Source of the DNA: Candidatus Omnitrophota bacterium
Lineage (GTDB): Bacteria; Omnitrophota; Omnitrophia; Omnitrophales; Aquincolibacteriaceae
Direction of reading: 5' to 3'
DNA length: 64,000 nucleotides
NCBI GenBank assembly: GCA_023247055.1
Contig: JAHFHF010000002.1
Location: 16,710 to 80,709, forward strand
Shown: positions 9,181-61,919 of the stretch, piece by piece
Layout of the letters: every line of letters starts with the position of its first letter
How positions within the stretch are numbered: the stretch's first letter is position 1
Notes under the pieces: generated by a model
Seen by the model: only the letters and a program-made list of their open reading frames with translations
Databases searched by the model: none
What the model was told of the DNA's origin: nothing
Translations under genes and position numbers: made by a program

Positions 9181-9483
<303 letters not shown>

Positions 9484-16879: not shown

Positions 16880-17470
16880 CTAGGCCCGGTCTTGCGCCAG
16901 ACGGCGCAGAGCTTCAGGATAAATTTCATATTCGGCAGCATGGATCCGGGCTTCGAAAGTTTCGAGCGTGTCATCGGGCAAAAGAGGCACTTTGCGCTGC
17001 AGGATGACCGGTCCGGCGTCCACAGCCGGGGTCACAAAATGCACGGTGACTCCGGTACCGGCTTCAAGCGGCCTTGCTTTGAAGGCATCTGCAATGGCAT
17101 GCCCTCCCGGAAAAGCCGGCAGGTATGAGGGATGAATATTGATCAGCCGGCCTGAATAGCGATTCACAAAATCCGCACTTAAAATCCGCATAAAACCTGC
17201 CAGCGCGATAAAATCAACGGCATGCTTTTCAAGCTCTGCCACAATGGCCTGCTCAAAAAATTCCTTCGAAGCAAATAGATCGCGGTCAATTAGCTTGGTT
17301 TCAACCCCGAGCCGGGCCGCACGTTCCAAAGCTTTTGCGCCCGGCTTGTCGCAAATGACAATCGCGGCTTCATACGGCAAGCGTTGTTCGCGGATCTTCA
17401 GCACCAGATTTTCCATGTTGGTGCCGCCGCCCGAAACAAAAACCGCCAATTTTTTGATGCAAGCATTCAT
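16880..17470 (-). CDS. purN: Phosphoribosylglycinamide formyltransferase
   Basis: KKLAVFVSGGGTN...INIHPSYLP motifs; start moved to the ATG at 17470 (MNACIKK) because the longer track ORF runs through a repeat element. Confidence 0.85.
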   Translation of the reverse strand: MNACIKKLAVFVSGGGTNMENLVLKIREQRLPYEAAIVICDKPGAKALERAARLGVETKLIDRDLFASKEFFEQAIVAELEKHAVDFIALAGFMRILSADFVNRYSGRLINIHPSYLPAFPGGHAIADAFKARPLEAGTGVTVHFVTPAVDAGPVILQRKVPLLPDDTLETFEARIHAAEYEIYPEALRRLAQDRA

Positions 17471-17482
17471 AAATTTTTTTAT

Positions 17483-17583
17483 TTTGTCATTGCGAGGAGT
17501 CTCACCGCTTTTGGGTAGACGACGAAGCAATCTATTTAAGATGGCTTCACCCATCACAAAACTCGACGGTCCGCAATGACAAA
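17483..17583. repeat. TIR-type palindromic repeat (type 2: TTTGTCATTGCGAG ... CGCAATGACAAA)
   Basis: 13-bp terminal inverted repeats plus an internal cgaagcaatct hairpin core shared with the copies at 23128 and 27297. Confidence 0.6.
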
Positions 17584-18283: not shown

Positions 18284-19396
18284 TCAGCGCTGCCGTTCGA
18301 GGACGTAATCGAGCAGTTTCTCGAGGCTGTGCTTGGCGGGCGATGCGGGAAAAGGCTGAAGGGCCTGACGGGCCTCGGCGCTGAATTGCCGCGCTTTTTC
18401 AAACGCATAATCCAGGGTTTTAGCGCCGCGAATTTTTTCAAGCAGGGCTCGCAGCCGGCCGGCATCGCCGGATTCAAACACCGCCTGGATCTCCGCTCGC
18501 ACAGACGCCCCGGAGCAAGCCAGAAGACGGATGAGCGGCAGGGTCAAAACCCCTGCTTCGAGATCAGCGCCCAGCGTTTTGCCAAATTCATGCTCATTGC
18601 CGGTAAAATCCAGGCAGTCGTCGACAATCTGAAAAGCCATGCCGAAGGCATGGCCAAAACGGCTGAGCGCTGCCGCTTCCTCAGTGCTGCAGCCGGCATA
18701 ACGCGCGCCCGATTCAAGCGCACAGGCCAGAAGCACGGCTGTTTTCTTGCGGATAATTTCAAAATACTCTTCTTCGGTCAAACCGAAATTTTTATTTTGA
18801 CTCAACTCGTGAATTTCACCGTCGCAGACTTCTGCGGCAGTTTTCAAAAAAAGCGAAAAGACTTCGCGGCTTCCTTCCGTGTGGATAACTTCGAGCGCTT
18901 TATCGTGCAGATAATCCCCAACCAGCACTGCCGTCGGCGCACCCCATTTCACATTGATGGTGGGAATATTGCGGCGCAAATAAGCGGAATCGATAATGTC
19001 GTCATGGATCAGCGTTGCCGCGTGAAAGATTTCATAGGAAGCGGAAAGCCGGACCAAAGGCGGGAATGATATGCCGCCAACAGCGGCATAGACATCGCTG
19101 TCTTTGCCGCCGAGCAAAGGCGAGAATGACACACCGCCAACAGCGGCGTGTACATGACTGTCTTTGCCTCCGTGCAAAGGAGGATGAATTTGCGCGGAAT
19201 AAACCGGCTGTTTTAACGCTGCCCCCAAGAGCGTCAGGGCCGGACGCAGCAGCTTGCCTTTGCCTGAAAAAAAATACTGAATGACTTCGGACGCCAGCGC
19301 ATTGGACGTGCCCAAAACCTCAATCAGCGCGGCCGGAACCTTTTCAATCGAGGCTTCAATCGGAGCATAGATTTCTTCAAGAGTTATGGTTTGCAT
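18284..19396 (-). CDS. ispB: Polyprenyl (octaprenyl-type) diphosphate synthase carrying an in-frame repeat-derived 42-aa insert
   Basis: DDxxD motifs LIHDDIIDS and IVDDCLDF; start taken at the ATG at 19396 (MQTITLEE), which overlaps the fmdB stop (TAATG); the extra segment HGGKDSHVHAAVGGVSFSPL / LGGKDSDVYAAVGGISFPPL lies between the conserved LRPAL and IHxATLxHDD blocks. Confidence 0.8.
   Translation of the reverse strand: MQTITLEEIYAPIEASIEKVPAALIEVLGTSNALASEVIQYFFSGKGKLLRPALTLLGAALKQPVYSAQIHPPLHGGKDSHVHAAVGGVSFSPLLGGKDSDVYAAVGGISFPPLVRLSASYEIFHAATLIHDDIIDSAYLRRNIPTINVKWGAPTAVLVGDYLHDKALEVIHTEGSREVFSLFLKTAAEVCDGEIHELSQNKNFGLTEEEYFEIIRKKTAVLLACALESGARYAGCSTEEAAALSRFGHAFGMAFQIVDDCLDFTGNEHEFGKTLGADLEAGVLTLPLIRLLACSGASVRAEIQAVFESGDAGRLRALLEKIRGAKTLDYAFEKARQFSAEARQALQPFPASPAKHSLEKLLDYVLERQR
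19061..19190. repeat. Two tandem 63-bp copies of the TGTCATTCCCGC-family repeat lying in-frame within ispB
   Basis: Shares the core gaatgaca(c)(a/g)ccgccaacagcggc with the reverse complement of the intergenic 58-bp unit (21057, 29422). Confidence 0.65.
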
Positions 19397-20928: not shown

Positions 20929-21056
20929 ACCGACTCTCCTTTTGGGTGATTGCAAAAGGTGAGTCACGTGAACACCATGACTTTTACACCGGCTGATTCT
21001 GCGCGAATGAGCCAGGAACCCGGTTGAATTTTAGACTATTTCCGCATGTCCGTTCT

Positions 21057-21203
21057 TGTCATTCCCGCCTCTGCGTGGAAGCCGAGACGGTCATGCTCGC
21101 CGCTGTTGGCGGCGTGTCATTCCCGCCTCTGCGTGGAAGCCGAGACGGTCATGCTCGCCGCTGTTGGCGGCGTGTCATTCCCGCATGCTTTTGGCGGGAA
21201 TCA
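21057..21203. repeat. Type-1 repeat: two tandem 58-bp units plus a terminal hairpin (tgtcattcccgc-atgcttttg-gcgggaatc)
   Basis: Two exact 58-bp direct repeats starting TGTCATTCCCGCCTCTGCGTGGAAGCCGAGAC, then a 9-bp-stem hairpin and a T-tract. Confidence 0.8.
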
Positions 21204-21252
21204 GCGCTTTTTGACGTTCTCGAATGCCCTTGTCAAGGGCCCAGCAAGCCTG

Positions 21253-21310
21253 ATCCCCGACAAAGACATTCGGGGATGACATTGTGTGCGCGACCGCACA
21301 CACAATGTCA
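21253..21310 (-). terminator. Two stem-loops immediately after the mutL stop
   Basis: gacattgtgtgcg-cgac-cgcacacacaatgtc (13-bp stem) and atccccg-acaaagacatt-cggggat. Confidence 0.35.
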
Positions 21311-23127: not shown

Positions 23128-23245
23128 TTTGTCATTGCGACCTGCAGTAGCAAGGCACGCTGCTTTTTAGCGGGCAACGAAGCAATCTGCTTTTAAAAAC
23201 GAGATTGCTTCGGCCTCAAATGGAACCCCGCCTCGCAATGACAAA
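23128..23245. repeat. Type-2 TIR repeat (TTTGTCATTGCGA ... TCGCAATGACAAA) with an internal 11-bp-stem palindrome
   Basis: Perfect 13-bp TIRs; internal cgaagcaatct-gcttttaaaaac-gagattgcttcg; fills the mutS-mutL intergenic gap. Confidence 0.75.
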
Positions 23246-27296: not shown

Positions 27297-27345
27297 TTTG
27301 TCATTGCGAGGCAGGGTTCACCCTGAAGCCGAAGCAATCTCCGCA
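27297..27345. repeat. Truncated type-2 repeat (left TIR TTTGTCATTGCGAG plus the cgaagcaatctc core)
   Basis: Left half matches the 23128 and 17483 copies; the right TIR is absent. Confidence 0.5.
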
Positions 27346-29403: not shown

Positions 29404-29568
29404 TGTCATTCGATGACGCTGTGTCATTCCCGCCTCTGCGTGGAAGCCGAGACTGTCATGCGCAGCGCTGTTGGCGCTGTGTCATTCCCGCCTCTGCGTG
29501 GAAGCCGAGACTGTCATGCGCAGCGCTGTTGGCGCTGTGTCATTCCCGCAAGTTTTTGGCGGGAATCT
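29404..29568. repeat. Type-1 repeat: a partial unit, two 58-bp units, and a terminal hairpin that overlaps the mfd stop
   Basis: Units start at 29422 and 29480; hairpin tgtcattcccgc-aagtttttg-gcgggaatc at 29538-29568. Confidence 0.8.
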
Positions 29569-36168: not shown

Positions 36169-36199
36169 TGTCATTCCCGCATGCTTTTGGCGGGAATCT
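36169..36199. repeat. Isolated type-1 terminal hairpin (tgtcattcccgc-atgcttttg-gcgggaatc) followed by a T-tract
   Basis: Identical to the hairpin that ends the arrays at 21173 and 59563. Confidence 0.7.
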
Positions 36200-36298
36200 G
36201 CGTTTTTTGTTGTTTCTAAATTTCTTTGTCAAAAACTTAACTTGCCCGATCCTCGACTAAAGCATTCGAGGATGACCAGACACATCAGCGTCGTCTGG

Positions 36299-59504: not shown

Positions 59505-59628
59505 TATCATTCTCGCCTCGGCATGGAAGCCGAGACTATCATGCTCAGCGCTGTTTGCTCCGTGTCATTCCCGCATGCTTTAGGCGGGAATCTAACTCGC
59601 TAGATCCCCGCCAAAAACATGCGGGGAT
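59505..59628. repeat. Degenerate type-1 unit, the terminal hairpin, and an inverted related hairpin, in the rplL-rpoB spacer
   Basis: tatcattctcgcctcggcatggaagccgagactatcatgc...; hairpin 59563-59592; second hairpin atccccgc-caaaaacat-gcggggat at 59603-59628. Confidence 0.65.
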
Positions 59629-59658
59629 AACCATCAAACTACTACCGCAATTTGATGG

Positions 59659-60081
59659 TTACTTGATCTCGACTTTAGCGCCCTGCTCTTCGAGAATTTT
59701 CTTGATCTTGTCAGCTTCTTCTTTGGTGACGCCTTGCTTGACCATCTTCGGCGCGCCCTCAACCAAGTCTTTGGCTTCTTTCAAGCCCAAGTTGGTGACG
59801 GCACGAATCTCTTTAATCACCTGGATCTTCTTGTCACCGGCACTGGCTAAAATAACATCAAAGGCCGTCTTTTCTTCGACGGCTGCCGCACCGCCTGCTG
59901 CACCGCCGCCTGCGGGCGCTGCAACGGCCACGGCCGCCGCTGCTGAAACACCAAAACGCTCTTCAAGCGCTTTGACCAGTTCGGCTAATTCCAGAACCGT
60001 CAATTCTTCGATCGTTTTCAAAACTCCCTGAAGCTTGGCCGAAAGACTTTTGCCCGCTTCCACTGCTGTTTCGTTTGACAT
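59659..60081 (-). CDS. rplL: 50S ribosomal protein L7/L12
   Basis: Start at MSNETAV (ATG 60081) with RBS AAGGAGGG; Ala/Gly hinge; conserved CTD. Confidence 0.93.
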
Positions 60082-60136
60082 GTTACCCTCCTTGAAATTT
60101 ACTAAATAACCGGAATTGAATTTTCCGGAACTGTTT

Positions 60137-60673
60137 TTAAGATGCCGCGCCTTCTTTTTTCTTTTTGATTTCATTCAGCGCTACGGCAAACCCTCTCAAT
60201 ACTTGGTTGAGAGTCATGACAAATCCCGAAATCGGGGACTTCATACGGACGACCACTTGCGTCAAGAGTTCTTGCCGGGACGGCAGCAAAGCCAGCGACT
60301 TGATGAACTGCTGGTCATAGAGTTTCTTTTCAAATACAACGGCACGGGGCACAAATTTTTCGTTTTTCTTGGCGAAATCAACAATGGCTTTAGAAATGGT
60401 TTGCGGCGCACCTTCGCCAAACGTAATCAGGACATGCCCTTTGAGATAAGAATCAATTTCACCTAAAGACAAATTCGCGAATGCTTTGCGGGCTAGCGTG
60501 TGCTTGACGACCAACGACCGCGTAGAAACCTTGCCCAGCGAACGGCGCAATTCAGCCAAAGCTTCCAATGGAAAATTCTCAAAGTTAGAAATGAACGCAT
60601 ACGGGCTTCCTGTCAGCTCGCGCTCGATTTCCCTCAACATGATTTCTTTGACCGGCGATACAGCAGTTCTCAT
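60137..60673 (-). CDS. rplJ: 50S ribosomal protein L10
   Basis: Start at MRTAVSP (ATG 60673), only 7 nt after the rplA stop. Confidence 0.88.
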
Positions 60674-61837: not shown

Positions 61838-61919
61838 TGTCATCCCGAATCCGCCGAAGTTTTAGCGGCGGGTGAAGGATCTCAACCCTGAGATTCTTCG
61901 CTTCGCTCAGAACGACAAA
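61838..61919. repeat. Type-3 repeat (second copy, opposite orientation) in the nusG-rplK spacer
   Basis: tgtcatcccgaa...gtgaaggatctcaaccctgagattcttcgc...tcagaacgacaaa; the termini are inverted relative to the 31494 copy. Confidence 0.65.

Follow-up and report, generated by a model that had tools for sequence, protein, structure and literature searches.

In the 64,000-nucleotide stretch of a Candidatus Omnitrophota genome that was analysed here (the window), an ispB-like gene for a long-chain trans-polyprenyl diphosphate synthase carries two tandem repeat units that are homologous to a family of intergenic, hairpin-forming repeats in the same stretch. The best explanation, to which we assign a probability of about 0.82, is that a cluster of hairpin repeats, similar to repetitive extragenic palindromic (REP) sequences, was inserted in-frame, and in this lineage only, into an otherwise intact and conserved ispB. 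The enzyme presumably still works, in which case the insert would be a tolerated passenger.

The insert comprises two tandem 60-bp units (120 bp, 19055-19174) and adds 40 residues (74-113) to the protein. Tandem Repeats Finder (TRF) delimits the repeat at 19055-19180 with a period of 60, 2.1 copies and 83% matches, and a second repeat search gives the same pair. Unit 1 (19115-19174) and unit 2 (19055-19114) both lie on the minus strand, and each spans 20 codons, encoding the peptides HGGKDSHVHAAVGGVSFSPL and LGGKDSDVYAAVGGISFPPL, respectively. The original prediction had recognized two tandem units inside ispB, which is confirmed, and had quoted both peptides correctly as read on the coding strand. 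Its unit size of 63 bp, or 21 codons, does not agree with the TRF period of 60 bp, or 20 codons; the unit boundaries accordingly move from 19061-19127 and 19128-19190 to the positions given above, and the estimate of about 42 added residues is reduced to 40, matching a gap of exactly 120 bp in the DNA of orthologues. The claim that the reading frame is preserved stands, as the 120-bp insert is free of stop codons, and so does the location of the repeat within the PF00348 open reading frame (ORF), where it is preceded by GKLLRPALTLL and followed by DDIID, the first DDxxD motif. Read in the coding direction, the insert has no stop in any of its three frames, whereas two of the three frames in the reverse orientation contain stops; orientation and a length divisible by three (3n) would therefore constitute two filters for insertion.

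The relationship between the genic and the intergenic units is well supported at the nucleotide level. A core, GAATGAYAYNCCGCCAACAGCGGC, had been reported to recur in the genic units and, as reverse complement, in the intergenic units at 21057 and 29422, and this is borne out by 6 matches versus 0.00 expected. Full-length alignment of the genic units with the 21069 unit shows 45-48 of 60 identical positions and a single 2-bp indel (48/60 for unit 1), and identity between the genic and the intergenic repeats (21057, 29422, 59505) is 75-80%; unit 1 also matches a 59-bp unit from another metagenome contig (L006) at 51 of 60 positions. In the pairwise nucleotide test suggested along with the original prediction, the observed unit-versus-unit alignment scores were reached by none of 5000 shuffles (0/5000). 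The intergenic units of the window are 58 bp long, but other metagenome contigs hold units of 59 bp (L006) and 60 bp (L007), so that length variants of 58, 59 and 60 bp are natural to the family, and the copy in ispB is a variant with a 3n length of 60 bp. The divergence of the genic units had been taken as a sign of an older insertion; this holds in part, since it partly reflects a different sub-family (59/60-bp units with GTAC) and not age alone.

Each unit consists of a hairpin, CTYNGC-N6-GCNRAG, followed by an 8-bp stem around the loop TGTTG and then by TGTCATTCCCGC, and each intergenic array, in which the units are arranged head-to-tail, is capped by one complete hairpin of the form TGTCATTCCCGC-N9-GCGGGAATC. 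Across seven units, 92.9% of the cells in the hairpin stems are paired and 7 of 14 pairs are changed on both sides, a level of covariation that none of 500 shuffles attained (0/500), while slid controls were 28-52% paired. A search of the window with a covariance model (CM R1) yields seven full units and no more, two of them in the gene and five intergenic, with 84.8 bits for genic unit 1 (19120-19179) and 78.6 bits for genic unit 2 (19060-19119). Moreover, CM R1 matches units outside its training set in two related loci (L002, 5-62 and 112-171; L004, 5993-6052), all of them intergenic and with stems that are entirely different yet complementary, which implies that the repeat family is old in this Omnitrophota lineage. 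Scans with a DNA pattern of the repeat returned one locus in a set of genome contigs that does not include the source genome and two in metagenome contigs, and no Rfam family matches the repeats at either the gathering or the E-value threshold.

The host gene (18284-19396, minus strand) is an intact ORF encoding 370 amino acids from its ATG, and its product matches PF00348 (polyprenyl_synt) with E=9e-58. Among proteins of known structure, octaprenyl and decaprenyl diphosphate synthases are closest to it. An AlphaFold2 model was built from a 68-sequence alignment (mean predicted local distance difference test score, pLDDT, 84.6); in Foldseek comparisons with long-chain prenyl synthases, its core reaches a target-normalised template modelling (TM) score of ~0.9, and octaprenyl, decaprenyl and solanesyl synthases are the fold matches. 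All invariant columns of the alignment are retained, including D132, D133 and D136 of the first aspartate-rich motif, DDIID (residues 132-136; 18989-19003, minus strand), and the second DDxxD motif, DDCLD (residues 259-263 of the minus-strand gene). With its domain, two DDxxD motifs and an all-helical fold, the gene product thus qualifies as a long-chain trans-polyprenyl synthase of the IspB type. Translation of the insert would yield the tryptic peptide DSHVHAAVGGVSFSPLLGGK.

Within this fold, the insert occupies the turn between the GKxxRP helix and the helix of the first DDxxD motif. HMMER alignments to solved homologues split around it and map it between residues 68 and 70 of the 4jxn chain, i.e., into a tight turn, and the helix that carries DDIID (residues 113-137) begins at the end of the insert (residue 113). 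While the core of the model is confident, residues 75-101 have pLDDT values below 50, and the inserted segment is therefore predicted to be disordered. Among other orthologues, the same turn varies in length, with insertions of 6-18 residues. The segment had been described as a loop near the active site; in the modelled structure, however, it lies at the opposite end of the DDIID helix, and 19 helical residues at 1.5 Å per residue would put it about 28 Å away, a distance derived from helix geometry.

Could the insert be kept by selection? Selection might act at the nucleic-acid level, on mRNA hairpins or on sites for nucleases of the Ssn type in single-stranded DNA, or at the protein level, by partner binding or product length. 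We regard this as improbable, yet several observations would be in line with it. The two genic units are identical at 49/60 and differ at 11/60 positions, but both hairpins are intact in each. In the second hairpin stem, two base pairs differ between unit 2 and unit 1, both fully compensated, and these C-G to T-A changes were compensated despite their cost in amino acid replacements (H to Y and V to I). In addition, the mRNA is more stably folded over the insert region than shuffled sequences are (z = -4.2), dN between the units (nonsynonymous divergence, 0.13) is lower than dS (synonymous divergence, ~0.5; 0.50), and ispB has been intact throughout the divergence of the units. However, 20 codons are insufficient for a dN/dS test, and differences that existed before the insertion, or gene conversion from other copies, would mimic compensation. 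Furthermore, the segment is predicted to be disordered, it occupies a turn of variable length, and it is known from a single population, the assemblies of which are ≥99.9% identical. For the earlier suggestion that the insert has been domesticated, we found no direct support.

Inactivation of ispB by the insertion, leaving a young pseudogene that has not yet decayed, is very unlikely. It is conceivable that 40 extra residues harm a compact all-helical enzyme, and the genome might possess a second ispB. On the other hand, the frame is kept and the insert is stop-free, the invariant columns are retained without exception, and the helix-helix turn tolerates the insertions of 6-18 residues mentioned above. 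Moreover, had one unit been duplicated in place to give the two, a dS of ~0.5 would have left enough time for stops or frameshifts to accumulate in an unconstrained ORF of 1.1 kb, and the gene would have contained the insert and remained open for a considerable period.

The segment is restricted to one lineage. It is missing from 119 of the 119 other best homologues retrieved, which are ~330 amino acids long, all come from Omnitrophota-type metagenome genomes, and include proteins that are 82% identical outside the insert. The gene order mutL-radC-His_Phos-Zn_ribbon-ispB-rsmI-purN is common to the window and four related loci (L002, L003, L004 and L005), which identifies their ispB genes as true orthologues. 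In the alignment of orthologue DNA, the insert corresponds to a clean 120-bp gap between CAT CCT CCT TTG and GTC CGG; an empty site in the window gene would read CATCCTCCTTTGGTCCGG. The orthologue alignment that had been recommended for this segment thus shows it to be lineage-specific, both among the homologues and at the syntenic loci. One orthologue (L003) reads CATCCTGCTCTG at the insertion spot, from which we infer that the site resembled the repeat boundary CATTCCCGCCTYTG before the insertion. The idea that the segment is an ancestral IspB loop lost elsewhere, or a duplication native to the gene that later seeded the intergenic repeats, is a bare possibility that scarcely deserves credence, given its absence from all homologues, the presence of the intergenic family in relatives without the genic insert, and the occurrence of family units in unrelated metagenome contigs. 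Nor is the insert an assembly artefact: repeats commonly cause misassembly of metagenomes, and repeat reads might have been wrongly joined into ispB, or contigs wrongly binned, but this explanation has next to no probability, as the genic units are 15-25% different from every other copy and hence not mis-placed reads of the copies found here, the junctions are in-frame and exact, and the same sequence is present in three assemblies from different samples. In particular, a second cluster member in ENA (P0122) is identical to the window protein (P0001) at 369 of 370 residues and carries the insert, and its contigs from two different samples show 99.99% (L012) and 99.94% (L013) identity with the window.

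How the units might have entered the gene is suggested by their boundaries. Of the tagged hairpin found at the end of the intergenic arrays, the genic units contain the tag and the left arm (TGTCATTCTCGC and TATCATTCCCGC) but no right arm, and the insert lacks the right-hand inverted repeat GCGGGAAT. Directly upstream of the insert, the native gene sequence CCTCCTTTG (19175-19183, minus strand) is an 8/9 direct repeat of CCGCCTTTG, the last bases of the insert at 19055-19063, as seen in the sequence and when it is aligned with orthologue DNA; the point of insertion is therefore ambiguous within 9 bases. This flanking repeat could be a target-site duplication or microhomology. Since the insert comprises whole periods, lacks the right terminal arm and is flanked by the 8/9 direct repeat, copying via microhomology fits better than transposition of a complete element. 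Probably, a unit was copied from an array into ispB by template switching or illegitimate recombination, for which CATCCTCCTTTG of the gene and CATTCCCGCCTYTG of the repeat would supply the microhomology. Perhaps a single unit arrived in this way and was later duplicated in place by slippage; duplication within arrays does happen, as the units of one intergenic array are 100% identical. Alternatively, the process could have started with hairpin-directed cutting or nicking of a single strand by an Ssn- or RAYT-type enzyme. Ssn-related motifs (SRM) have been described as targets of small GIY-YIG nucleases, which bind them in single-stranded DNA and cut them there (PMC11893778). The ssn genes of this kind belong to cd10448 and are in many cases flanked by the repeats.

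Several points weigh against the proposed insertion of a tolerated repeat cluster. First, the term "tolerated" rests on the intact ORF and on its conservation. The ispB gene seems to evolve under purifying selection, with a dN/dS of 0.108/1.34 (~0.08) relative to the nearest orthologue, but this figure largely records the history of the gene before the insertion. Second, the 9-bp near-repeat flanking the insert is possibly due to chance, and an array with 60-bp units and CTTTGC/GCAAAG stems that could have been the source is absent from the window. Third, the window contains four loci with full units, of which one is genic, so that recurrent hits in ORFs are not shown, and a HMMER scan of 1.84 billion representative proteins found the insert peptide in no other protein (the sole hit, a repetitive adhesin of 6967 amino acids, P0121, was spurious, without any aligned stretch). 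Finally, regarding a link to Ssn-type enzymes, the genic units fall outside the SRM definition, as they hold only the left half of the hairpin, a Pfam scan of 20 small ORFs revealed no ssn, RAYT or other transposase gene, and a crude search for the GIY-YIG motif in all six frames of the window and of 11 loci was negative.

In-frame insertion of repeats into genes is already known from Rickettsia and other bacteria, and the likeness to the Rickettsia palindromic elements (RPE) noted in the original prediction is upheld by the literature. According to Di Nocera et al. (2013), dRS3 belongs to a superfamily of CGTC/TGTC-tagged REPs, of which RPE-4 and RPE-6 of R. conorii are members (PMC3733652), and the hairpin capping the arrays of the window shares the tag and the stem of the dRS3/NTS hairpin. 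REPs that lie inside genes, in many cases as dimers or clusters, and code for 20-82 residues have been documented (PMC3733652). As in the intragenic REPs, RPE-4 and RPE-6 (PMC3733652), an unpaired xGTC tag is followed by a stem starting with AT; the four terminal hairpins TGTC-ATTCCCGC...GCGGGAAT have such a tag and an AT-starting stem of 8-9 bp. Like RPEs, which are mostly intergenic but sometimes lie wholly within ORFs and in-frame (Ogata et al., 2000, 2002, cited in PMC10969869), the family has copies elsewhere, its unit forms hairpins, and the genic copy is in-frame in an ORF and absent from orthologues. RPEs and intragenic REPs are thought to be neutral because they reside in flexible linkers or loops, as does the insert described here. 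In contrast to known RPE hosts, the organism belongs to another phylum, Omnitrophota; its genic units, of 60 bp and two hairpins each, follow one another head-to-tail as a tandem pair, whereas intragenic REPs form head-to-head dimers; they retain the left arm of the tagged hairpin only; and a single ORF is hit in 64 kb, compared to many in R. conorii. The link to RPEs is based on the classification of RPE-4 and RPE-6 as CGTC-type REPs in the literature (PMC3733652).

A second point of reference is the Neisseria Transformation Sequence (NTS), CGTCATTCCCGCGMAVGCGGGAATCYRG, which was described in 2025 (PMC11893778). The array-capping hairpin, (T)GTCATTCCCGC...GCGGGAATC, shares its tag, its 8-bp stem and its 3' C. 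NTS copies, too, are rarely intragenic (2% in N. meningitidis). One exact match to the SRM pattern, HGTCWYN(0-2)YYVSBRHN(0-5)WNVSBRGN(0-2)RNCYNB, occurs in the window (36169-36201) versus 0.2 expected; the hairpins at 21173, 29538 and 59563 match the pattern with one mismatch in the 3' tail, although about 7 such matches per shuffle arise by chance. However, the loop of the terminal hairpin has 9 nt, compared to 4 nt in NTS and to the 4-5 nt that define CGTC/TGTC-tagged REPs (the second hairpin of the unit has the 5-nt loop TGTTG), and the spacing of N13 departs from the strict dRS3 consensus, ATTCCC-N8-GGGAAT. Moreover, the biology of Ssn, i.e., the control of transformation, is known for Neisseria alone. 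The arrays also recall the NIME of Neisseria in that the hairpin sequence alternates with other repeat modules of ~50 bp (PMC1797815), but they differ in having one complete hairpin per array, with half-sites separating the modules, whereas in NIME dRS3 flanks RS modules of 50-150 bp. With the GTAG REPs, BIMEs and REPINs the family shares short imperfect palindromes with compensated stems, clustering in spacers between co-directional genes, and an inverted pair in a relative (L002, 5-62 and 112-171). Unlike GTAG REP/RAYT systems, however, it has an xGTC tag instead of GTAG and forms direct tandem arrays. Finally, MITEs, or miniature inverted-repeat transposable elements, such as ERIC are likewise small non-coding repeats able to fuse in-frame with host ORFs (PMC10969869). 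Unlike a MITE, the genic insert is an internal piece of an array without terminal inverted repeats or a clear target-site duplication, as the flanking 8/9 repeat coincides with the period and is indistinguishable from microhomology.

Taken as an insertion of a repeat cluster, the ispB case would add an uncultured phylum to Rickettsia and the few other groups in which selfish hairpin DNA occurs inside genes, and it would link intragenic repeats to NTS-type hairpins, whose partner nuclease family, Ssn, was not described until 2025. It also identifies a permissive turn in a conserved enzyme and cautions annotators that a "loop" of 40 residues may be repeat DNA. Knowledge of the mechanism by which these elements spread is unchanged by it, but CM R1 can be applied to whole Omnitrophota genomes and might thereby serve to gauge the entry of repeats into genes.

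The intergenic copies are located on the plus strand. The first array (21057-21202) lies in the spacer between mutL and radC and consists of a pair of identical 58-bp units and, after them, the terminal hairpin TGTCATTCCCGC-ATGCTTTTG-GCGGGAATC (TRF period 58, 2.2 copies, 100% matches; CM R1 79.2 bits for both units); further hairpins extend to ~21303, and the array region folds far better as DNA than shuffles (z = -6.6). The whole spacer (20968-21307) is ~340-380 bp long and full of repeat units and three kinds of hairpins, whereas the orthologous spacer in L004 measures 90 bp, and this relative has a unit in the mutS-mutL spacer instead. The second array (29422-29567), likewise detected by TRF, has the same composition of two 58-bp units and a terminal hairpin (CM R1 81.1 bits for both units), and its second hairpin stem reads CAGCGC/GCGCTG instead of CGCCGC/GCGGCG, by compensatory changes. 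A single 58-bp unit with a terminal hairpin (59505-59592; CM R1 73.2 bits at 59517-59574) is found downstream of rpoC and upstream of the gene for L7/L12. The longest ORF of the latter (59659-60174) encodes 171 amino acids, but its Pfam domains start at residue 49; translation probably begins downstream of the start of this ORF, and the repeat at 59505-59631 would therefore be farther from the end of the L7/L12 gene than the ORF implies.

Outside the arrays, a stand-alone terminal hairpin, TGTCATTCCCGCATGCTTTTGGCGGGAATCTGC, occurs at 36169-36201 on the plus strand; it is the sole exact SRM match mentioned above and fits ATTCCC-N13-GGGAAT. Hairpins of the general form GTCAT-stem...stem-RATC number 9 in the window versus 1.05 expected, including the four of the NTS type; those with other stems, e.g., GTCATTGCGAGGC...GCCGAAGCAATC, are located between housekeeping genes (17486-17532, 21252-21280, 23203-23242, 27300-27339 and 61839-61881). 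The first of these overlaps the purN ORF (16880-17557), which encodes 224-225 amino acids compared to 182-202 in orthologues and is thus ~30 residues longer. The N-terminal extension (17470-17557) is a translation of the hairpin at 17486-17532 and probably represents a mis-called start rather than a second genic insertion.

Palindromes are also present in the ispB genes of other Omnitrophota. In a protein that is 65% identical to the window IspB (P0013), a near-perfect palindrome of 68 bp (L008, 10193-10260), with 27-nt arms that are 96% complementary and a 14-nt loop, occupies the same turn between helices without breaking the frame and explains ~15 extra residues; no other copy of it occurs in the 21-kb L008 locus. 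Two further proteins (P0035 and P0046) have inserts of 18 residues in this first turn, with a weaker palindrome (at L009 3197-3250 for P0035). In a second turn, after residue 307 as numbered on the window protein, lineage-specific inserts of 13-21 residues are found in P0093 (L010, 10787-10843), P0077, P0076 and P0032. Of these, the insert "GSLPVRQAG" of P0077 and P0093 is encoded by the palindrome CCTGCCTG-N5-CAGGCAGG, and the fetched L010 locus contains no other copy of its ispB palindrome. A tentative idea, which we consider rather doubtful, is that in Omnitrophota a small number of surface turns of IspB have time and again received palindromic repeats in-frame. If it were true and the hairpins were under selection, the phylum would contain a natural series of protein loops derived from selfish hairpin DNA, possibly linked to single-strand nucleases of the Ssn type.

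Apart from the repeats, the window contains a group I catalytic intron (RF00028) at 9252-9459 on the minus strand (58 bits, E=4e-12), within 9181-9483, which interrupts a tRNA gene. The identity of this tRNA is ambiguous, as it appears as a long-arm Leu/Ser type or as Met depending on the splice point that is chosen, and ARAGORN detects a tRNA at 9181-9483 only if the intron is taken out or its presence is permitted in the search.

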